Positions 4,806-62,842 of a stretch of 64,000 nucleotides of DNA are shown piece by piece. The DNA lies in contig OZ024743.1 in the NCBI GenBank assembly GCA_964016885.1, positions 36,022,001-36,086,000 of the forward strand, read 5' to 3'. The DNA comes from Eledone cirrhosa (Eukaryota). The position numbers and the translations under genes are program-made. The notes below the pieces were generated by a model that made no database searches, was not told where the DNA came from, and saw only the letters and a program-made list of their open reading frames with translations. Within the stretch, counting starts at the first letter, position 1; each line of letters starts with the position of its first letter.

Positions 4806-5355
4806 TGATCAAATTTTTCGCATGTGCAAATGGTCTGTTAAAATTCTGTGAACTGCATTTCTATCCAAGCCCATTTCTTCTGCAATCACCCCAACACTTA
4901 ACTGACGACCATTCGCCATCATCGCTCGCACCATTTCCACATTTTGTTCATTTTTTGTCGAGATTGTCCTTCCAGAACGAGGTTCATATTCAACATTTTC
5001 TCGGGCCTCTTTGAAAGCTTTGTGCCACTTAAAAACTCTATTTCTCGATAGAGTGACATCTCCATAAGCTTGTATTAAAGAATTAAATGTTTTGATGGCA
5101 GATTTGTTCTTTCACACACAATTAAATAACGTACCGTAGTTCGATATTTTCCTGCGTCGCAAAAATAACAGAGGTTATAAACATGTCTGTACATAAACAG
5201 CAATGACTCACGATATAACCAATCGATCATGTTGATAACAAGTATGTATGTGCAGTAATAGTCATTCTAACATGCCTATATACATTAACGAGTTGCTGCT
5301 TTACCATGTCATACATAGTAAAATCAGTAATCTTACTTTTGGGACAAACCTCGTA
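4806..5355 (-). mobile_element. Mariner transposon 5' fragment (TIR plus decayed transposase N-terminal HTH)
   Basis: Minus-strand translation KSAIKTFNSLIQAYGDVTLSRNRVFKWHKAFKEARENVEYEPRSGRTISTKNEQNVEMVRAMMANGRQLSVGVIAEEMGLDRNAVHRILTDHLHMRKI is a typical mariner N-terminus; terminus TA|CGAGGTTTGTCCCAAAAG at 5355-5336. Confidence 0.88.
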
Positions 5356-7583: not shown

Positions 7584-7665
7584 ATGGCTGCCTCCTCGTT
7601 ATCGAGTATGGCTATTGTACGAAAAAATCCCCAAAATAATAACGACAGCAATAATAACAATAATA
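7584..7665 (-). mobile_element. Isolated 3' terminus of the RTE family seen at 55848
   Basis: ATGGCTGCCTCCTCGTTATCGAGTATGGCTATTGTACGA aligns with 55848 GACGGCTGCCCCCTCGTTATCGAGTATGGCCATTGCACGA; both are followed by an (AAT/AAC)n tract. Confidence 0.75.
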
Positions 7666-8787
7666 AAAACTGCAACAATTGGATTATCTAAATATCTAAG
7701 GGAATCACATGATTGGATGATCAAACTCGTTTTGAAACACGAAAGCATCAAAAGATCATACTCCATTACAAAAGATGCACAAAGATACAGTAATGGACTA
7801 CACATTTCAGAAGTCCCATTTACTACTGAAATGGAAAACACAGAAAAAGCAAAGCAGGCAAAAGTAACTGCAAAGAAAGAACTGCTACAGAAACTGGCTA
7901 AGAAATGGCAAGAAAAGCCTCTGTATGGAAAATACCCAGAAAGAGCTAACAATCCTGATGTTGACAAAACTTTAACCCATCAGTTGTTGGCATCCTCTGG
8001 ATTGAAATCGGAGACTGAAGGACTGATTATATCAGCACAAGATCAGTGTCTGCCAACAAAAAATTACCAAGCCAACATAATAAAAAATGGATGCAACCCA
8101 TTATGCCGTGTATGTAAAAAACAACCAGAGACCATTGATCATATAATTTCAATGTGCAGTCCTATAGCTCCAACCGAATACCTAAACAGGCAATACATAC
8201 ATTGGATAATGTGTAAGCATTTTGACCTGCCCTATCAAAAGAATTGGTGGGAACATCAACCACCTCCCATACTTGAAAAAGATCACATCTCAATCTTGTG
8301 GAACTTTAGCATCCAAACAGACCGAAAAAATAGATGCAAATAGACCTGATATAATACTGAAGAACTTTAAAAAGAGGGTATGCACAAGAATGTATCTATA
8401 AAAGCATTTGAAAAATTGAGTATAAGGACCTGGAGATAGAAATTGGAAAAATGTGGAAATTGAGAACTAAAACAATACCAGTGGTTGTAGGCACTCTAGG
8501 AATGATACCTAAGGGGTCTAATGATTGCTTATCGCAAATCCCAGGAAACCCGCGTATAGGAGAAATACAAAAGATAGTACTAATGGGAACTGCCCATATA
8601 CTAAGGAAGATTCTGTCAATATAAGTACATCACAATTCTAAACACCTAAAGATGCATGTGTGTGTATGTATGTTCTTTCTTGAACTTGGCGAACCTTGTT
8701 GTCTCTTGAGGTCACTGGTTGTGACCTGGTGATAACTCGTATGAACATAAAGCAAGATAAATGCAACTGTAATAATAATAATAATAA
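7666..8787 (+). mobile_element. 5'-truncated R4/Dong-type non-LTR retrotransposon (CCHC knuckle plus RLE endonuclease), frameshifted, with (TAA)n tail
   Basis: ETEGLIISAQDQ; CRVCKKQPETIDHIISMC; ILWNFSIQTDR; RPDII; KDLEIEIGKMW...IPVVVGTLG...LMGTAHILRKILSI* (stop 8622-8624); 3' UTR then (TAA)n at 8770-8787. Confidence 0.9.
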
Positions 8788-8819
8788 AAATATATATACA
8801 TTCATATATACATACAACG

Positions 8820-9905
8820 TATAACCTGGGAATATAACACCCGAGTGAAAAGAATATGGTCTTCTGAAATGTCTGCGCACAATAAATCAGTGGCCCACAA
8901 TGTGTTTGATGTACCTGTACTAATACCAACATTTAGAATACTTGATTGGACGCTGGATGAAATTCGAGCCATCGATGTTAAAACCAGAATAATCCTAACT
9001 AACATCGGAAACTTCTACATTAACAGTAACATAGACTGCCTCTACCTGAAACGTAAACAGGGAGGGAGAAGCTTAACATCAGTCCTGGCAGCATTTTTGT
9101 GTCGCATCATATACTTCCAACAACATCTACGAAACACTACGCGTATGAGCCCATTGAAATTGAATCCATGGACGAAAAGGTACATGTTTATCAGCAAAAG
9201 ATCTTGCATGGGTATGTTGTCAGAAAGCCCTAAAGTGAGAGTAATATAGATAAGCAAAGTAGTCTATCTTGGACCAACAACCGCTATATTGGCTCCCACT
9301 TTGAAGGATATGTTTTTACAATCCACGAACATAAAATAACTACAAAATACCTGATTCACAAAAGAAATAGGGATGCTGGCAAGACACCCAGATGTGACAA
9401 GTGATGCAGACTCTAACGAATTAACATCGAAGATGTCAATCATATCATAAGCAGCTGTCCAAAGATGTCATAACGGTAGTATCTATCTATGAGGCATGAT
9501 GTAGTGGCCAAAAGACTATAGAATGTAATCTGTAGAATGGACAGCCTTGACAATAAACATATAAAAACTTACAGCAATGTGGAAGACATACATATACATA
9601 ATATGAAAGAGTACTGGTGGAATTTTCCAGTCAAATTCCCAATAAAATACAAAAACACAGACATAGTTATATGGAACAAAATTAATATAATGCTAAAGAT
9701 CAGTGAAAAGGAGAACATTTATGCTGAACTAATGAGGAAACTGTAGATATCTCACCCTGACTATACCTTTAGATTTGTACCTGTAATTACTGCGGCTCTT
9801 GGATAAGTTAATGCATCAGTACAAGTCATGAAAAGCTGAGTGTCACAGAACGAGAAAGTGTGCGGCAAGTTAGGAAGCGTAAAAATATGTTAAACTTTTC
9901 AGAAA
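8820..9905 (+). pseudogene. Second, more decayed R4/Dong-type LINE fragment (RT thumb to RLE), different subfamily
   Basis: RVKRIWSSEMSAHNK...DVKTR...LYLKRKQGGRSL; LHGY; SHFEGYVFTIHE; CRL*RINIEDVNHIISSC...RHD; WWNFP; FVPVITAALG; many stops and deletions. Confidence 0.82.
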
Positions 9906-11857: not shown

Positions 11858-14800
11858 TACTACTACAATCACAACTACCACCACCACAACTACCACCATC
11901 ACAACTACCACCTTCACAACTACTACCATCACAACTAGCACCATCAGAACTACCACCATCACAACTACCTCCATCACAACTACCACTATCAGAACTACTA
12001 CCATCACAACTATCACCATCACAACTACTACAATCACAACTACCACCATCACAACTACCACCATCACAACTACCACTATCACAACTACCACCATCACAAC
12101 TACCACCATCACAACTACCACCATCACAACTATCACCATCACAACTACTACAATCACAACTACCACCATCACAACTACCACCATCACAACTACCACTATC
12201 ACAACTACCACCATTACAACTACCACCTTCACAACTACTACAATCACAACTACCACCTTCACAACTACCACCATCACAACTACCACTATCACAACTACCA
12301 CCATCACAACTACCACCATCACAACTACCACCATCAGAACTACCACCATCACAACTACCACCATCACAACAACCACTATCACAACAACCACTATAACAAC
12401 TACCACATCACAACTACCACTATCAAAACTACCACTATCACAACTACCACATCACAATTACCACTATCACAACTACCACCTTCACAACTACCACTATCAC
12501 AACTACCACCATCACAACTACCACTATCACAACTAACACCTTCACAACTACCACCATCACAACAACCACTATCACAACAACCACTATAACAACTACCACA
12601 TCACAACAACCACTATCACAACTACCACCATCACAACTACCACCATCACAACTACCACTATCACAACTACCACCATCACAACTACCACCATCAGAACTAC
12701 TACCATCACAACTACCACCATCACAACTACCACCATCAGAACTACCACCATCACAACTACCACCATCACAACTACCACCTTCACGAATACCACCATCACA
12801 AATACCACCATCACAAATACCACCATCACAACTACTACCATCACAACTACCACTATCACAACTACCACTATCACAACTACCACTATCACAACTACCACCA
12901 TCACAACTACCACCATCACAACTACCACTATCACAACTACCACCATCACAACTACCACCATCACAACTACCACCATCAGAACTACCACCATCACAACTAC
13001 CACCATCAGAACTACCACCATCACAACTACCACCATCACAACAACCACTATCACAACAACCACATCACAACTACCACTATCACAACTACCACTATCACAA
13101 CTACCACATCACAACTACCACTATCACAACTACCACCTTCACAACTACCACTATTACAACTACCACCATCACAACTACCACTATCACAACTAACACCTTC
13201 ACAACTACCACCATCACAACAACCACTATCACAACAACCACTATAACAACTACCACATCACAACAACCACTATCACAACTACCACCATCACAACTACCAC
13301 CATCACAACTACCACTATCACAACTACCACCATCACAACTACCACCATCAGAACTACTACCATCACAACTACCACCATCACAACTACCACCATCAGAACT
13401 ACCACCATCACAACTACCACCATCACAACTACCACCTTCACGAATACCACCATCACAAATACCACCATCACAAATACCACCATCACAACTACTACCATCA
13501 CAACTACCACTATCACAACTACCACTATCACAACTACCACTATCACAACTACCACCATCACAACTACCACCATCACAACTACCACTATCACAACTACCAC
13601 CATCACAACAACCACTATCACAACTACCACTATAACAACTACCACTATCACAACTACCACTATCACAACTACCACTATCACAACTACCACATCACAACTA
13701 CCACTATCACAACTACCACCATCAGAACTACCACTATCACAACTACCACCATCACAACTATCACCATCACAACTACCACTATCACAACTACCACCATCAC
13801 AACTAACACCATCACAACTACGACCATCACAACAACCACTATCACAACTACTACCATCACAACTACCACCTTCACAACTACCACCTTCACAACTACCACC
13901 ATCAGAACTACCACTATCACAACTACCACCATCACAACAACCACTATCACAACTACCACCTTCACAACTACCACTATCACAACTACCACCCTCACAACTA
14001 CCACCACCACAACTACCACCTTCACAACTACAACCATCACAACTACCACCATCACAACTACCACCATCACAACTACCACCATTACAACTACCACCTTCAC
14101 AACTAACACCATCACAACTATCACCATCACAACTACGACCATCACCACAACCACTATCACAACTACCACCATCACAACTACCACCATCACAACTACCACT
14201 ATCACAACTACCACTATAACAACTACCACATCACAACTACCACTATCACAACTACCACCATCAAAACTAACACCATCACAACTAACACCATCACAACTAC
14301 CACTATCACAACTACCACCATCACAACAACCACTATCACAACAACCACCATCACAACTACCACCATCACAACTACCACTATCACAACTACCACCTTCACA
14401 ACTACCACCATCACAACTACCACCATCACAACTACCACTATCACAACTACCACCATCACAACTACCACCATCACAACTACCACCATCACAACTACCACCA
14501 TCACAACTACCACTATCACAACTACCACCATCACAACTACCACTATCACAACTACTACCATCACAACTACCACCATCACAACTACCACCATCACAACTAC
14601 CACCATCACAACTACCACCATCACAACTACCACTATCACAACTACCACCATCACAACTACCACCCTCACAACTACCACCTTCACAACTACCACTATCACA
14701 ACTACCACCATCACAACTACCACTATCACAACTACTACCATCACAACTACCACCATCACAACTACCACCATCACAACTACCACCATCACAACTACCACCA

Positions 14801-17240
14801 TCACAACAACCACCATCACAACAACCACCATCACAACTACCACCATCACAACTACCACCATCACAACTACCACTATCACAGCTACCACCATCACAACTAC
14901 CACCCTCACAACTACCACCTTCACGAATACCACCATCACAACAACCACTATAACAACTACCACATCACAACTACCACTATCACAACTACCACTATCACAA
15001 CTACCACATCACAACTACCACTATCACAACTACCACCTTCACAACTACCACTATCACAACTACCACCATCACAACTACCACTATCACAACTAACACCTTC
15101 ACAACTACCACCATCACAACAACCACTATCACAACAACCACTATCACAACTACCACCATCACAACTACCACTATCACAACTACCACTATCACAACTACCA
15201 CCATCACAACTACCACCATCAGAACTACTACCATCACAACTACCACCATCACAACTACCACCATCAGAACTACCACCATCACAACTACCACCATCACAAC
15301 TACCACCTTCACGAATACCACCATCACAAATACCACCATCACAAATACCACCATCAGAACTACTACCATCACAACTACCACCATCACAACTACCACTATC
15401 ACAACTACCACCATCACAACTACCACCATCACAACTACCGCCATCACAACTACCACCATCACAACTACCACCATCACAACTACCACCATCACAACTACCA
15501 CTATCACAACTACCAACATCACAACTACCACCATCACAACTACCACCATCACAACTACCACCATCACAACTACCACCATCACAACTACCACCATCACAAC
15601 TACCACTATCACAACTACTACCATCACAACTACCACCATCACAACTACCACCATCACAACTACCACCATCACAACTACCACTATCACAACTACCACCATC
15701 ACAACTACCACCCTCACAACTACCACCTTCACAACTACCACTATCACAACTACCACCATCACAACTACCACTATCACAACTACTACCATCACAACTACCA
15801 CCATCACAACTACCACCATCAGAACTACCACCATCACAACTACCACCATCACAACTACCATCATCACAACAACCACCATCACAACAACCACCATCACAAC
15901 TACCACCATCACAACTACCACCATCATAACTACCACCATCACAACTACCACTATCACAGCTACCACCATCACAACTACCACCCTCACAACTACCACATTC
16001 ACAACTACCACCTTCACAACTACCACCATCACAACTACCACCATCACAACAACCACTATCACAACTACCACCATCACAACTACCATCATCACAACTACCA
16101 CTATCACAACTACCACCATCATAACTACCACCATCACAACCATGATCACAACTACCACCATCACAACAACCACCATCACCACCACCACCTTCACAACTAC
16201 CACCATCACAACTACCACTATCACAACTACCACTATCACAACTACCACTATCACAACTACCACCTTCACAACTACCACCTTCACAACTACCACCATCACA
16301 ACTACCACTATCACAACTACCACTATCACAACTACTACCATCACAACTACTACCATCACAACTACCACCATCACAACTACCACCATCACAACTACCACCA
16401 TCACAACTACCACTATCACAACTACCATCATCACAACTACCACCATCACAACTACCACCCTCACAACTACCACCTTCACAACTACCATCATCACAACTAC
16501 CACCATCACAACTACCACCATCACAGCTACCACTATCATAACTACCACCATCACAACTACCACTATCATAACTACCACCATCACAACTACCACCCTCACA
16601 ACTACCACCTTCACAACTACCACCATCACAACTACCACCATCACAACAACCACTATCATAACTACCATCATCACAACTACCACCATCACAACTACCACCA
16701 TCACAACTACCACTATCATAACTACCACCATCACAACTACCACTATCATAACTACCACCATCACAACTACCACCCTCACAACTACCACCTTCACAACTAC
16801 CATCATCACAACTACCACCATCACAACTACCACCATCACAACTACCACCATCACAACTACCACCCTCACAACTACCACCTTCACAACTACCACCCTCACA
16901 ACTACCACCTTCACAACTACCACCATCACAACTACCACCATCACAACTACCACTATCACAACTACCACCATCACAACTACCACTATCATAACTACCACTA
17001 TCACAACTACCACCATCACAACTACCACCATCACAACTACCACTATCACAACTACCACCATCACAACTACCACTATCATAACTACCACCATCACAACTAC
17101 CACTATCATAACTACCACCATCATAACTACCACCATCACAACTACCACTATCATAACTACCACCATCATAACTACCACCATCACAACTACCACTATCATA
17201 ACTACCGCCATCACAACTACCACTATCATAACTACCACCA
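11858..17240. repeat. 15-bp minisatellite (ACAACTACCACCATC)n, ~5.4 kb, ~360 units
   Basis: Direct tandem array; reads TTTTI on +, and VVVVM or GGSCD on -; occasional 14-bp units shift the frame. Confidence 0.97.
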
Positions 17241-17313
17241 TAGGACCCATAGCTTCGAGTTAACACAAACATTACATAGCAACCTGTCAAATGAATTATA
17301 CCTAAAACTCATA

Positions 17314-39041: not shown

Positions 39042-39639
39042 GGTGGCTGCCAACTCGTTTTCGAGTACGGCCACTACTTTATATCCATATAGGAGAACCC
39101 CTACCGATGCAGTGAACGAGTGTGACCTTTTAGTCCAGCCAGCGACTTGAAAACTCTGGTACAAACACTACACTTGTGACAAATATTGACACATAGTGCT
39201 GGGGCCATGGTACCCTGTGACGACAAGTGCAGAGAGATCTCCAGATATAAAGCAATGCCTGTGCCGTGAAGCTTTTATAGTGAGCAAAGGCACTGCACAA
39301 AGCCAGTCCCACTCTCTTAACCAAGATGATATTTACCAAAAAGAAGAACAAGTCAACATCATTGGATACCATCAGAGTTGCAGGTGTTATATCAGAGTTT
39401 TCCTTCTCCTAGAATTCTGCCTTGACAAAGGCTAAGGGGTCATCTCTCCCGGTGATTTTGGATGGCCATTGACTCTTAAGAGCTCCTTTGCCCTTTGACA
39501 GGTCTTGTTTTTAGTCCTGCAGGATGTCCAAAGTCACCCTCCTCACCAAGAAACCTTGGTGGGGTTGCCAGTTTAGTCGCCAACGACCCGACCATGGGAC
39601 AGGTTGTACTGGGATACATGTTACCAGTAGCACCAACTG
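39042..39639 (-). mobile_element. ~600-bp non-autonomous RTE-derived retroposon (NA-RTE), near full length
   Basis: Highly similar to the reverse complement of 62245-62842; contains CTAGGAGAAGGAAAACTCTGA; 3' end shared with the RTE at 55848; (CATA)n on both flanks. Confidence 0.9.
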
Positions 39640-53751: not shown

Positions 53752-54343
53752 ATTTTAAATCATCACTGACATCACTTTTAACTAACAAAAACTTTAAGAT
53801 CATTCAAGAAGTTTCCACATTATTGGAGGGGCTGAAGCTCCTTAGCGCCGGAAGGTTTGTGATCATTTCCATATCTTGCTGAGTCGGATATGATTCACTG
53901 AAAAGTTCGAAATGCATTCGTTCCTTTCATTAGTTGGTTTAAAAGACAAGATTAATTCTTGCCTGTATCGTCTTTATTTACCAAATATTTCGAATGGCTG
54001 ATATCGCAAGTGGTGAACTGGCAGAGTTTTTCGGACGACGGCTGGAATAATTTGTGCTATTCATTTCGGCTAAGTGGGGTGGATTTCCAGTATCGGGTGA
54101 GGGTCGGACGACCTTCTTCTTCTTCTCTCTTTCGAAAACTTCGGCTGTGTTCCAACTTAAAGAGGGATGTGTTCTGGCATGGTTAAATTGCCCTTATGTC
54201 GCCATTAGCAGTTAGAGAATCAGAATTTAATGAGTGATGTTATTGGGTTTAAGATTTTAAATTACTCCAGAGGGAGATTGTATCTACTAATTGCATGGAT
54301 AATCTCAGTTGATAAAAGTTTTTCAACTCATTATGTTACATTT

Positions 54344-54526
54344 GATTGGCAGTATCGGTAGAGGTTCGGACGCCATGCTTTGACGCATAGAGTTACGGCC
54401 CTTGCCATTCTGAGTTCAAATCCCGCCGAGGTTAACTTTGCCTTTCATCCTTACGGGGTCGATAAAATAAAGTACCAGTAATGTACTGGGTAATTTTCTG
54501 GCCTTGTGCCAATAGTAGAAACAATT
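54344..54526 (+). mobile_element. SINE family A, type II
   Basis: Consensus match. Confidence 0.9.
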
Positions 54527-54651
54527 ATATTTTACATATTACATATGAACAATCATATTGTGCGTGTATAGCGCTGTGTGTTTTGGTATCAACACAGAGT
54601 GTGTATAAGTCCATATGTATATATGTGTGTGTGTGTGTGGGGGGGGATACT

Positions 54652-54779
54652 GCAAGTGTACGTGTATGTAAGTGTACGTGTGTGTAAGTGTACGTGTGCG
54701 TAAGTGTACGTGTATGTAAGTGTATGCGTATGTAAGTGTATGTGTATGTAAGAGTACGTGTGTGTAAGTGTATGTGCGT
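54652..54779. repeat. 16-bp minisatellite (GTAAGTGTACGTGTRT) x8
   Basis: Eight consecutive 16-mers visible. Confidence 0.88.
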
Positions 54780-54935
54780 GTGCTGACCGAGTGTCTATCA
54801 TTGTGATTCAGTCACATTTTTTTCTAAACACACACACAAATACCTACACAAAGACACAAGCACATACAACATAGGCACACGCATACATACATACTTACAT
54901 ACATACCTACATAGATACGCGCACAAATACATACA

Positions 54936-54967
<32 letters not shown>

Positions 54968-55147
54968 CACATAATGCATACATACATACATGCATACATA
55001 CATACTTACTTACATACATACACATATACATACACACATACATACATACATACATACTTACTTACATACTTACACACATACATACATACACACATACTTA
55101 CATACATACATACGCACATACTTACATACTTACTTACATACATACGT

Positions 55148-55556
55148 GGTGGCTGCCAACTCGTTTTCGAGTACGGCCACTACTTTATATCCATGTAGGA
55201 GAACCCCTACCGATGCGCTGAACAAGTGTGACTTTTTAGTCCAGCCAGCAACTTGGAAACTCTGGTAAAAAAAACTACACTTGCGACAATTATTGACACA
55301 TAGTGCTTGGCCCATGGTACCATGTAACAACAAGAGCAAAGAGATCTCCAGATGTAAAGCAATGCCTGTGCCGTGAAGCTTTTATAGTGAGCAAAGGCAC
55401 TGCACAAAGCCAGTCCCACTCTCTTAACCAAGATGATATTTACCAAAAAGAAGAACAAGTCAACATCATTGGATACCATCAGGGTTGCAGGTGTTATATC
55501 AGAGTTTTCCTTCTCCTAGAATTCTGCCCTGACAAAGGCTAAGGGGTCATCTCTCC
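55148..55556 (-). mobile_element. NA-RTE, 5'-truncated copy
   Basis: Matches the 3' ~410 bp of the 39042 and 62237 copies; (CATA)n on both sides. Confidence 0.9.
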
Positions 55557-55847
55557 TCATACATACATACATACATACATACATACATACATACATACAT
55601 ACATACACACATACACACATACATACGTACATACATACTTACTTACATACTTACACACATACATACATACATACATACATACATACATACACACATACTT
55701 ACTTACATACATACTTACATACCTACATAGATACACACACAACTACTTACATACATACACACATAATGCATACATACATACATACATACATACATACATA
55801 CATACATACATACATACATACATGCATACATACATACATACGCACAT

Positions 55848-57536
55848 GACGGCTGCCCCCTCGTTATCGAGTATGGCCATTGCACGAGAAAAAAAATATA
55901 TATATACATATATATTGATAACAATAATAATAATAATAACAACAATAATAATAACGACAACAACAACAATAATAATATACATATATATATATACACACAC
56001 ACGCACACACATAAACAAATCTATACACACACGCGATAGCAACTAACAGCGCTGCGATCGAATTGGGCTTTTTAGCCCAGCCAATGATCTAAAATGTCTT
56101 GCACAGAGTCGGCAACCAAAACATTCACTGGGAATAGCCGGCTGTAGTTGGAGTTCATGTACTTTTGCATGTCGTTTGAGCCCTCCTGCTGATTTACATT
56201 CTCTACCACATCCTTGGCAAGCATGATGAGTAGCATCTCCAACAGCAGCCTGGAAGTCAACCACTGGTCTTACTTTATGACTGCGAAGATGACTTTCGAG
56301 TCCAGCTTTGCTTAGGCAGAGTCTCGCACAGACGCTGCATGTCAGCACCATAGGAAGACCCTCGCCGTCTGGAAGTGCAACAGCAATGCCCTTCCTCACA
56401 TCCCGCTTTACTTTCTCGTATGCGATTCGAGATGTCTCAAAGGCAACTTTCCCCTCATATACAGTCTTTCTCCATTTATTACGATCAGCAGCAATATTTT
56501 CCCATGTATCAGCAGAGATGTTAGCGTCTTTCAAAGAGGCTTTCAAGGAATCCTTATACCTCTTTTTTGGTTTATGTGGCGATCGTTTTCCTTTAACCAA
56601 CTCTCCATAAAAGAGTTGTTTTGGTATTCTAGAATCCTTCATCCTGGCAAGGTGACCACTCCAACGGAGTCGTTGCTTAAGCACAAGAGCTTCTATACTG
56701 TCACACATAGAGCTTTCTAAAATCTCGACATCACTGATGTAGTCCCTCCAGTGAACGCCATGGATCCGTCTGAGACACATCTGGTGGAAACGCTCCAATT
56801 GCTTAAGGTGGTGTCGATATGTGATCCAGGTTTCGCAGGCATAAAGAAGACAAGAGAGCACACATGCCTTGTACACCTTTACCTTTGTCTTCTTGCATAT
56901 GTCTTGCCGACCCCAGAGTCGCCTTTCTAGCTTTCCGAAAGCATCACTTGCTTTCCTAATCCTAAGTGAGAGTTCACTATCAAGGTTGCTCTATCGATTG
57001 ACAGTGCTTCCCAAGTAGACAAACTGATCAACCACTCCAAGTCGTTTACTATACACATAGATACTTGGTTCACTGTACTGCTTACCAGGGGCAGGTTGGT
57101 ACATGACGACGGTTTTCTTGAGACTGATAGTCAATCCTAGGGCAGTGCAAGCGTCAGAAAATGCATTCAAAATGTGCTGCATATCACTCTCTGTGTGCGT
57201 TACAAGATTGCAATCATCTGCATACGAGAGGTCTCTTATGATTGATGTAAATACTGTTGTCTTTGCAGCAAAGCTCCTGATGTTAAAAGGCTGTCTGAGG
57301 TTCGATATCGTATGTAAACACCATGCTCGCAATTCCTGAATGCAATACAGAAAACTATTGCAAAGTATATGGTAAACAGGGTCGGTGCTGGAATATCCCC
57401 CTGTTTCACTCCATTTTTTACTGAGATAGGCTCCGACATGTTAACTCCGACATTAACCCAAGCCTTCATGTCGTCATGGGAAGACCTAACTAAAGCAAGG
57501 AACTTATCAGGGCAACCACGTTTCTGGAGAACCTTA
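55848..57536 (-). mobile_element. 5'-truncated RTE-BovB-like LINE: RT with YADD, thumb, three C2H2-type fingers, 3' UTR, (ATGT)n tail
   Basis: GCPDKF...NGVKQG..APTLF...DLSYADD...GLTISLKKT...FVYLGS...LLYACETW...RLRWSGH..RM...RIPKQLFYGEL; frameshift near 57290 and stop at 56991-56993; terminal stop 56043-56045. Confidence 0.93.
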
Positions 57537-57577
57537 TACATACATACATACATACATACATACATACATACATACAT

Positions 57578-57859
57578 GGTGGCTGCCAACTCGTTTTCGA
57601 GTACGGCCACTACTTTATATCCATGTAGGAGAACCCCTATCGATGCGCTGAACAAGTGTGACTTCGTAGTCCAGCCAGCGACTTGAAAACTCTGGTATAA
57701 ACACTACGCTTGTGACAATTATTGACACATAGTGCTGGGCCCATGGTACCATGTGAGGACAAGTGCAGAGAGATCTCCAGATATAAAGCAATGCCTGTGC
57801 TGTGAAGCTTTTATAGTGAGCAAAGGCACTGCACAAAGCCAGTCCCACTCTCTTAACCA
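57578..57859 (-). mobile_element. NA-RTE, 5'-truncated copy
   Basis: Matches the 3' ~280 bp of the family; (CATA)n on both sides. Confidence 0.9.
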
Positions 57860-58328
57860 TACTTACATACATACACACATACTTACATACATACACATAC
57901 ATGCATTCATAAACAGTTTCTCTTCACAGTTCAGTGCTCTGGAATCTATTCCTCTTTACCTCTTCCATTTCCTCCCCCTCCATCTCTCTCGCTCTACTAC
58001 ACACACATACATACACATACACACACACGTACGTACATACATACATACATACATACATACACACACATCTTTAAGATACACACACTCATACACAGACAAA
58101 CATTCCAGTAATCTCACACATACTCAAGTAGACACACATACACATACACATTTTTACCTATATATATATACTGGTATTATACGGGATCGTAATACCATGC
58201 GGTATTTGCAATCAAAACAACCACCATCACCATGACTACATAACCACAACTATCAACATTACCACTGTGAATATCATTACAATAACAACCACTAGCACCA
58301 CTATCGCAACCTCCCCCTCTCTCTCTCT

Positions 58329-58362
<34 letters not shown>

Positions 58363-58370
58363 TATATATA

Positions 58371-58557
58371 TAACTGTTTCTACTTTTGGCACAAGGCCAG
58401 CAAATTACCCAGTGTATTACTGGTACTTTATTTTATCGACCCCGTAAGGATGAAAAGCAAAGTTAACCTCGGCGGGATTTGAACTCAGAATGGCAAGGGC
58501 CGTAACTCTCTGCGTCAAAGCATGGCGTCCGACCCTCTACCGATACTGCCAATCCAC
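58371..58557 (-). mobile_element. SINE family A, type II
   Basis: Consensus match. Confidence 0.9.
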
Positions 58558-58686
58558 TACCATATATATATATAGAGAGAATAATACCAGCAATATTGTT
58601 TCATTAACATCCCCGCCGCCATCAGCTTCTAATTCAATTTTCCCATCGTCACACTATCACATCTCTACCATATTAATTATGCTACT

Positions 58687-58872
58687 GGTGGATTGGCAAT
58701 ATCAGTAGTGTTGAACACCATACTTTGCAGCATAGAATCACGGCCCTTTACGTTCTGAGTTCAAATCCCGCCGAGGTTATCTTTGCCTTTCATCCTTACG
58801 GGGTCGATAAGATAAAGTACCAGTAATGCACTGGTGTTAATTGCTAGCCTTGTGCCAAAAGTAGACACAATT
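58687..58872 (+). mobile_element. SINE family A
   Basis: Consensus match; inverted relative to 58371. Confidence 0.88.
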
Positions 58873-58911
58873 AATTATGCTACTTTTTTCGCTGCACCCA
58901 TACACCACCAG

Positions 58912-59205
58912 TGAAGGTGCCTGGCTAAATGTTTAGGGTGTTCGGCTGATGAGTTCGATTCCCAGATGAGTACTGTGTTCTTGAGCAAGACACTTTCCGT
59001 TGCTCCAGTCCACTAAATAGGCAACGTTGTACTTCAAAGGACCAGCTTTGTCATTCAGAGTTTAATGTTGAATGAATCTCCATGAGAACTACCTTAAGAG
59101 TACACGTGTCTGTGGCATACACAGCAACTTGCATGTTACTTCCACGAGCAGGCTGTTCCGTTAATCAAACAGCTTAAATACACATCGTCGAAACTGATGG
59201 AGTCT
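58912..59205 (+). mobile_element. SINE family C (tRNA head plus conserved core GTGTTCTTGAGCAAGACACTT)
   Basis: TGGCTAAATG (box A-like), GAGTTCGATTCCC (box B), tail ACACGTGTCTGTGG...GAGCAGGCTGTTCCG. Confidence 0.75.
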
Positions 59206-62078: not shown

Positions 62079-62236
62079 GTGTATGTGTGCATGTGTTTAT
62101 ATGTATGTATGCATGTGTATATATATATGTATGTATGTATGTATGTGTGTATGTGTGTACGCATGTTTATATGTATGTACACATGTTTATATGTATGTAT
62201 GTAAGTATGTATGCATGTATGTATGTATGTGTATGT

Positions 62237-62842
62237 CAGGTCACCAGTTGGTGCTACTGGTAACATGTATCCCAGTACAACCTGTCTCATGGTTGAGTCG
62301 TTGGCGACTAAACTAGCAACACCACCAAGGTTTCTTGGTGAGGAGGGTGACTTTGGACATCCTGTAGGACTAAAAACAAAACCTGTCAAAGGGCAAAGGA
62401 GCTCTTAAGAGTCAATGGCCATCCAAAATCACCGGGAGAGATGACCCCTTAGTCTTTGTCAAGGCAGAATTCTAGGAGAAGGAAAACTCTGATATAACAC
62501 CTGCAACCCTGATGGTATCCAATGATGTTGACTTGTTCTTCTTTTTGTTAAATATCATCTTGGTTAAGAGAGTGGGGCTGGATTTGTGCAGTGCCTTTGC
62601 TCACTATAAAAGCTTCACGGCACAGGCATTGCTTTATATCTGGAGATCTCTCTGCACTTGTCGTCACATGGTACCATGGGCCCAGCACTAAGTGTCAATA
62701 ATTGTCACAAGTGTAGTGTTTGTACCAGAGTTTCCAAGTCGCTGGCTGGACTAAAAAGTCACACTCGTTCAGCGCATCGGTAAGGGTTCTCCTACATGGA
62801 TATAAAGTAGTGGCCGTACTCGAAAACGAGTTGGCAGCCACC
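62237..62842 (+). mobile_element. NA-RTE, longest copy (606 bp)
   Basis: (GTAT)n|CAGGTCACC...CTAGGAGAAGGAAAACTCTGA (62472-62492)...TGGCCGTACTCGAAAACGAGTTGGCAGCCACC|GC(ATGT)n. Confidence 0.92.

Follow-up and report, generated by a model that had tools for sequence, protein, structure and literature searches.

The window, a 64,000-nt stretch of the Eledone cirrhosa genome, carries at 55 to 58 kb an array of three retroelement fragments on its minus strand: a 5'-truncated LINE, probably of RTE type, lies between two 5'-truncated copies of a shorter non-autonomous element (herein NA), and repeats of ATGT phase separate and flank them. The features of the array, read 5' to 3' on the minus strand, and two solo copies of NA found elsewhere in the window by sequence comparison are as follows.

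57860..57915, minus strand: candidate 5' target piece, a compound ATGT/AAGT tract with pattern-breaking 11-mers in common with the lower tracts
57578..57859, minus strand: 5'-truncated NA copy, equal to positions 326-607 of the 607-nt reference copy
57537..57577, minus strand: pure (ATGT)10 spacer, read from the sequence
55848..57536, minus strand: 5'-truncated LINE of probable RTE type, with the C-terminal part of the RT, C2H2 fingers, a (TTA/TTG)n 3' UTR and the shared 3' end
55557..55847, minus strand: compound ATGT/AAGT tract between the LINE fragment and the lower NA copy, with 65 11-mers in common with 54860-55147
55148..55556, minus strand: 5'-truncated NA copy, equal to positions 200-607 of the reference copy
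about 54860..55147, minus strand: candidate 3' target piece, a compound ATGT/AAGT tract with common 11-mers
39042..39639, minus strand: solo NA copy, near full length, in an ATGT/AT tract
62236..62842, plus strand: solo NA copy, full length (607 nt), in an ATGT tract; used as the reference copy

A preliminary description of this locus had proposed a co-oriented NA-RTE/RTE/NA-RTE array on the minus strand with each 5' junction inside ATGT-phase repeat, and a re-reading of the sequence agrees. It had also given the spacers as (ATGT)n; this holds for the pure (ATGT)10 at 57537-57577, but the other two of the three are old compound tracts. The LINE fragment (RVT_1, E = 1.4e-8 in a domain profile search; matches to the C-terminal C2H2 fingers are weak) carries two lesions, a frameshift near 57280 and a stop codon near 56991, and its best genomic copies are ~95% identical to it. 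The two NA copies are 93.6% identical to each other and truncated at different points; they are thus separate insertions, and tandem duplication as the origin of the array was rejected. The tracts at 55557-55847 and 54860-55147 have 65 pattern-breaking 11-mers in common, compared with at most 22 for control tracts (n = 8), and the upstream tract at 57860-57915 has 13 in common with each lower tract, compared with at most 9 in the eight controls. These common imperfections point to a single old compound tract that was cut three times. Comparison of positions 54000-59000 with four contig sets returned no piece spanning the array and is uninformative on empty sites. Both solo copies have ATGT-phase repeat at both ends, as first described, and the 3' flank of the copy at 39042-39639 passes gradually into (AT)n.

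In the 3.0 Gb of genome searched, the 607-nt NA element has 22,792 exact 3' ends and, with a longer anchor, 9,684 exact matches to its full-length 5' end. Its autonomous partner is a single-ORF LINE with an APE-RT-C2H2 architecture. Two of 20 extended loci (L163 and L164) contain a common 4.9-kb unit, set in differing flanks, that encodes APE, RT and C2H2 domains; a domain search of L164 and L168 places Exo_endo_phos (E about 5e-12) ahead of RVT_1 in the ORF. A separate ORF1 was looked for in the ~1.1 kb of repeat-rich sequence before the APE ORF of L163 and L164, which holds no ORF of 250 codons. The nearest proteins, of 1,100-1,200 aa, have the same domain layout, and such relatives are common; a PDB search matched only RT of the L1 ORF2 type. 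Long copies terminate in (ATC)1-3, not poly(A), and the element-borne 3' end is a variable (CAT/CAC)1-3. This architecture and a likeness of motifs suggest that the LINE is of RTE type.

NA positions 191-397 are 67% identical to the 5' UTR of the LINE (E = 7e-17) and the last 30 nt of the two elements are 87% identical, while positions 1-190 match an older non-autonomous family at 84% and have no match in the L163 LINE. NA accordingly has the build of a bipartite, non-coding, non-autonomous RTE, with homology to the LINE at both the 5' UTR and the 3' end. Because the two have this end and the insertion signature in common, this LINE probably moves NA in trans. The 5' end of NA (window 62231-62335, plus strand) is sharply defined and carries nested hairpins that are kept in the older family. 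A fold of seven NA 5'-end sequences has 29 pairs, 2 compensatory; an Rfam search of this end gave matches only below the gathering scores, mostly on flanking repeats. It is possible that the 5' end is a putative self-cleaving ribozyme.

Placement of the family was counted exactly across the genome on the 3' side. (ATGT)3 follows the NA 3' end in 6,094 of 22,792 cases and (AT)6 in 4,845, the opposite-strand phase (ATAC)3 in 3 and the other ACAT phase in none. Full-length 5' ends gave 2,954 matches with (ATGT)3 within 6 nt upstream and 13 with (ACAT)3, counts that were made with a 16-nt anchor, include double counting in 2 of the first 100 rows and are not an exact fraction of the 9,684 5' ends. 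The strand bias in placement exceeds 200:1. Long autonomous copies behave similarly: 13 of 24 have an ATGT-like 5' flank and none an ACAT-like one (30 loci, less 6 copies running off their locus), or 13 of 17 once 4 interrupted, 2 full-length and 1 rearranged copies are set aside. The proposal that the family inserts into (ATGT)n is borne out by the 5' matches and by the autonomous copies. For (AT)n the proposal needs to be widened; this repeat is also a target, though a weaker one. A sample of 399,800 random bases contains 296 (ATGT)3 and 12,022 (AT)6 sites, or 45 and 616 tract-orientations, and use of ATGT over AT is 51-fold per site and 17-fold per tract. Among 146 NA 3' junctions, 136 begin ATGT or ATAT (60 of them ATAT, with no G), and the family is nearly absent from (GT)n/(AC)n.

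Flanks were classified in 98 copies, drawn from 79 of the first 82 listed 3'-end places and from 20 random 10-kb stretches; they were chosen regardless of flank, the first 20 Mb of one contig supplied most of them, and neighbours within arrays are among them. The 5' flank is ATGT-like in 53, AT-like in 10, ACAT-like in 1, GT in 1 and other in 33; with 33 of 98 outside the repeat classes, the preference for ATGT is strong, not absolute. Scoring against background also upholds the original proposal. With the 7 rearranged copies of the 98 left out, as in the tract-length test below, 35 of 64 solo copies have an ATGT-like 5' flank; among solo 5'-truncated copies the figure is 16 of 34, with ACAT-like flanks in 0 of 34. 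The background rate is 1.25% of 114,016 positions, and two control SINEs have ATGT-like 5' flanks in 0 of 52 and 0 of 10 copies. The oriented microsatellite preference of this RTE-type family is real and strong.

One abundant control SINE (for example at window 58373-58559, minus strand) ends in AACAATTAT; it lands outside repeats, at AT-rich sites, leaves clear duplications and forms head-to-tail pairs of its own. An older bipartite family, 84% like the 5' part of NA and with a LINE-type 3' end, is found at L253:7741-8270, L002, L007, L015 and L155. Repeat of ATGT type flanks the L253 copy on either side, on which basis the ATGT preference may predate the young family.

The two flanks of a copy resemble one another. 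Their GT content is correlated (rho 0.54, n = 82, p = 1e-7), and copies followed by ATAC have ACAT upstream in 3 of 3 cases. An unanchored search for target-site duplications was swamped by periodic matches, and sets anchored on a break in the repeat were used for the counts. A break 7 nt past the 3' end marks 445 copies; among the first 30 of these (6 overlap earlier loci), a duplication of 8-14 nt runs from offset 0 in 12 (mismatched-pair null: mean 0.96, maximum 4) and 18 have no diagnostic duplication. Of the first 30 of 113 copies with a break on the 5' side, 29 were scored (L213, for which no 3' end was found, was dropped). The break recurs within 12 nt in 10, at 13-40 nt in 0, more than 40 nt away in 1 and nowhere in 18; the corresponding nulls are 1.9, 0.2 and 0.6, the first peaking at 6. 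Two of the 10 (L228 and L229) appear to represent a single duplicated locus. The implied duplications are 9-15 nt.

Tract lengths are equal on the two sides (medians 62 and 67 nt, p = 0.97, n = 91). Perfect runs of at least 12 nt occur on the 5' side of 35 of 98 copies and on the 3' side of 26, and the 3' runs match background (p = 0.15). Summed over both sides, perfect runs reach 58 nt vs. a background of 45 nt (n = 26 vs. 179, p = 0.004); this excess of ~13 nt is about one duplication and also fits some expansion at insertion. Copies L176, L180, L184, L186, L188 and L198 each occupy the 3' margin of a long ATGT tract; these, together with the longer perfect runs on the 5' side, hint that upstream repeat counts more for recognition. 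On a tree of 71 of the 146 copies (75, too short or unlabelled, were left out), the AT/ATGT label changes 21 times, compared with 20.6-20.7 when shuffled, and is thus unclustered, although the star shape of the tree, in which 7 of 68 inner branches are well supported, weakens the label test. Separate AT-tailed and ATGT-tailed subfamilies found no support on this poorly resolved tree. Since duplications start at the element end, tract lengths are equal and the repeat type is independent of element lineage, the 3' tract is likely the split target, with no ATGT tail added by the element; a tail of one or a few units would be invisible inside perfect repeats. Flanks and duplications together make it very likely that pre-existing tracts are targeted.

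Arrays such as the one in the window exceed chance, in keeping with the preliminary description. Among the first 100 NA 3'-end places, 10 of 99 gaps are same-strand and no longer than 1.5 kb and 1 is opposite-strand, with 0.64 expected in all, and close same-strand neighbours are ~15-fold over chance. A same-strand family 3' end lies within 200 nt upstream of 22 of 98 copies and an opposite-strand one of 0 of 98 (background, 23 of 1,960 windows). Targeting in one orientation makes repeat insertions co-oriented. A family member precedes 22 of 98 copies, compared with 3 of 45 random ATGT tracts (p = 0.03), an excess that may come from length-biased hitting. The family had further been invoked to help explain the abundance of (CATA)n tracts; a sample of 45 random ATGT tracts has only 6 with a member inside 150 nt, so the family is not the main source of (CATA)n. 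The other 39 have no nearby member, a count that old decayed copies could escape.

We favor a reading, to which we give a probability of about 70%, in which the RTE LINE and NA enter and split pre-existing (ATGT)n and (AT)n tracts strand-specifically, with no ATGT tail, and repeat hits build arrays. Each insertion would split an existing tract and add a 9-15-nt duplication, and several insertions into one tract would give a head-to-tail array. The idea that each insertion creates the next landing site would survive only in this form, as a split tract plus a 9-15-nt duplication with repeat left on both sides, and not by way of an added tail. In target-primed reverse transcription, the APE endonuclease would nick the ACAT (or ATAT) strand at a TpA step, releasing an ...AT-3' end that would pair with the terminal ...CAU of the RNA; the first nick at TpA and the ...AT-3' primer are suggested by the 3' junctions, most of which begin ATGT or ATAT. 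Such a nick and pairing would allow (AT)n, admit (ATGT)n in one orientation only and, for want of a TpA step, exclude (GT)n/(AC)n. That ATGT is favored over AT by a further 17- to 51-fold would need an added sequence preference, which we tentatively place in the endonuclease, and we lean slightly toward the endonuclease as the main determinant of the target.

It is less probable, at perhaps one chance in a few, that the RNA picks the target. Read-through transcripts, with (AUGU)n ends derived from the source locus, would pair with the ACAT strand, and priming would start at the first AU, so that no tail is copied; ATGT far above AT and the strand bias would both be accounted for, and RNA-target pairing is proposed for RTE-related elements in parts of PMC6007223. 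Near-identical sister copies nevertheless lie in differing repeat types, which would require loose pairing, and the 60 of 146 junctions that begin ATAT contain no G. An improbable course is that insertion takes place at a short ATRT seed and both flanks then grow, either during repair or through slippage afterwards; the maize DNA transposon TAFTA provides a precedent, described in a section of PMC5907723. Growth of this kind would also yield symmetric tracts of matching type, and summed runs do lie above background, but the imperfections in the flanks extend far outside the duplication and the excess amounts to only about one duplication length.

The preliminary description attributed to the element an added (ATGT)n tail that serves as the next landing site and feeds the abundance of (CATA)n. 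This model is largely refuted, and we regard it as very unlikely, even though (ATGT)3 follows 6,094 3' ends, arrays are enriched, co-oriented and somewhat over the tract-level expectation, and lepidopteran RTEs are reported in part of PMC2887409, where seeding is defined by repeat lying between the duplications, to add repeats within their duplications. Microsatellite seeding of the type of Tay et al., with repeat between the element end and the duplication, was seen in 0 of 29 copies at 13-40 nt, and duplications start at offset 0 in 12 of 30. Perfect runs are no longer on the 3' side than on the 5' side or in background, and the 3' repeat type tracks the 5' type, following the target and not the element lineage. 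Solo copies also lie in the target (35 of 64), 39 of 45 random tracts lie away from any family member, and the tracts of the array have old imperfections in common. The absence of any active targeting, with insertion at breaks under repair in fragile repeats, survival bias or an artefact of assembly in its place, draws on the richness of the genome in microsatellites (11.7% of random positions adjoin an RT tract of at least 12 nt) and is refuted by the >200:1 strand bias, unless repair is itself strand-specific; the fixed ATRT start, the 9-15-nt duplications and the unbiased control SINEs also speak against it, and its likelihood is negligible.

The premise that RTEs are not regarded as sequence-specific agrees with their description in part of PMC2887409. 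Parts of PMC6007223 and PMC13295347 report a weak Tn-TA signature and a tail-target link for RTEs and confine site-specific APE LINEs to Tx1 and R1. Whereas published RTEs are unspecific or show a weak Tn-TA preference, the present family clusters in a single microsatellite class, in a single orientation. In other respects it resembles the RTE clade and its bipartite members, with a single ORF carrying APE and RT, a short repeat end and duplications of about 6-15 nt. The bipartite non-autonomous RTEs Bov-A, RTESINE and WALLSI3, covered in a portion of PMC5786205, likewise share a 5' UTR segment (here NA 191-397, 67%) and the 3' end with their partner; the portions of PMC5786205, PMC13282606 and PMC12988792 examined mention no target preference. 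RTE-2_OV of Octopus vulgaris also has an APE-RT-C2H2 single ORF and a microsatellite 3' UTR, and the parts of PMC9115989 examined, including eight supplementary files, mention no target preference for it. Three of its five published primers are collinear on L163 and L172, and all five match with 3-7 mismatches, near the shuffled minimum; identity with RTE-2_OV, compared by primers alone, was rejected, and RTE-2_OV would be at most a related family. No microsatellite-targeting RTE was found in the open-access literature searched.

An RTE with an oriented microsatellite preference would be unexpected for its class, repeat-targeting LINEs being already known in other clades. Waldo, Mino, Kibi and Koshi are such elements, and they belong, with Dong and TRAS/SART, to the R4, R1 or Tx1 clades. 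Dong targets (TAA)n and TRAS/SART target (TTAGG)n according to parts of PMC2887409 and PMC7265360, and SART1 and Dong are covered in sections of PMC7265360 and PMC3636483. As in the present family, insertion of these elements is oriented and into pre-existing simple repeats; unlike them, this family targets a dispersed ATGT/AT repeat, with incomplete specificity. SaTar MULE arrays of guayule and rice are similarly un-nested, linear and microsatellite-spaced, as described in a part of PMC5907723, but those MULEs are DNA transposons, whereas the elements here are co-oriented retroelements with short duplications. We consider it an open prospect, slightly short of even odds, that an RTE endonuclease recognising the (ACAT)n strand makes this a third APE-LINE lineage with true targeting, after R1 and Tx1: previously undescribed, present in tens of thousands of copies and provided with an inexhaustible target, since every insertion would leave repeat on both sides.

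A high-copy RTE oriented at >200:1 in (ATGT)n would be an exception to the restriction of site specificity to Tx1 and R1, and the family offers a clean system for asking whether the endonuclease or RNA-DNA pairing chooses the site. A single-ORF LINE aimed at a non-coding repeat would be of interest for gene insertion tools. The "microsatellite tails" of RTE consensus sequences call for caution, since they may consist of target sequence. Markers based on ATGT in this animal group may in many cases be linked to a repeat family.

Other elements were noted at the extended loci and in the window. At L156, L168, L170 and L172 (4 of 20 long RTE copies), another LINE with APE, RT and zf-RVT domains, which we take to be Tx1/L1-like, interrupts the RTE 5' UTR at the same (ATT)n tract. 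These interruptions suggest that a second LINE targets repeats, landing in a microsatellite of the RTE itself. At window 4809-5111 (minus strand) there is a mariner-type transposase HTH fragment (HTH_48, E = 0.001, below the cut-off). An old RTE-type 3' remnant at 7584-7669 (minus strand) adjoins plus-strand LINE-like ORF fragments, presumably R4/Dong-like, which lie with a weak zf-RVT match in TAA-rich sequence at 7584-9250. Positions 11859-17241 form a 5.4-kb array of a 15-nt unit, with ~360 copies at a 90% match.
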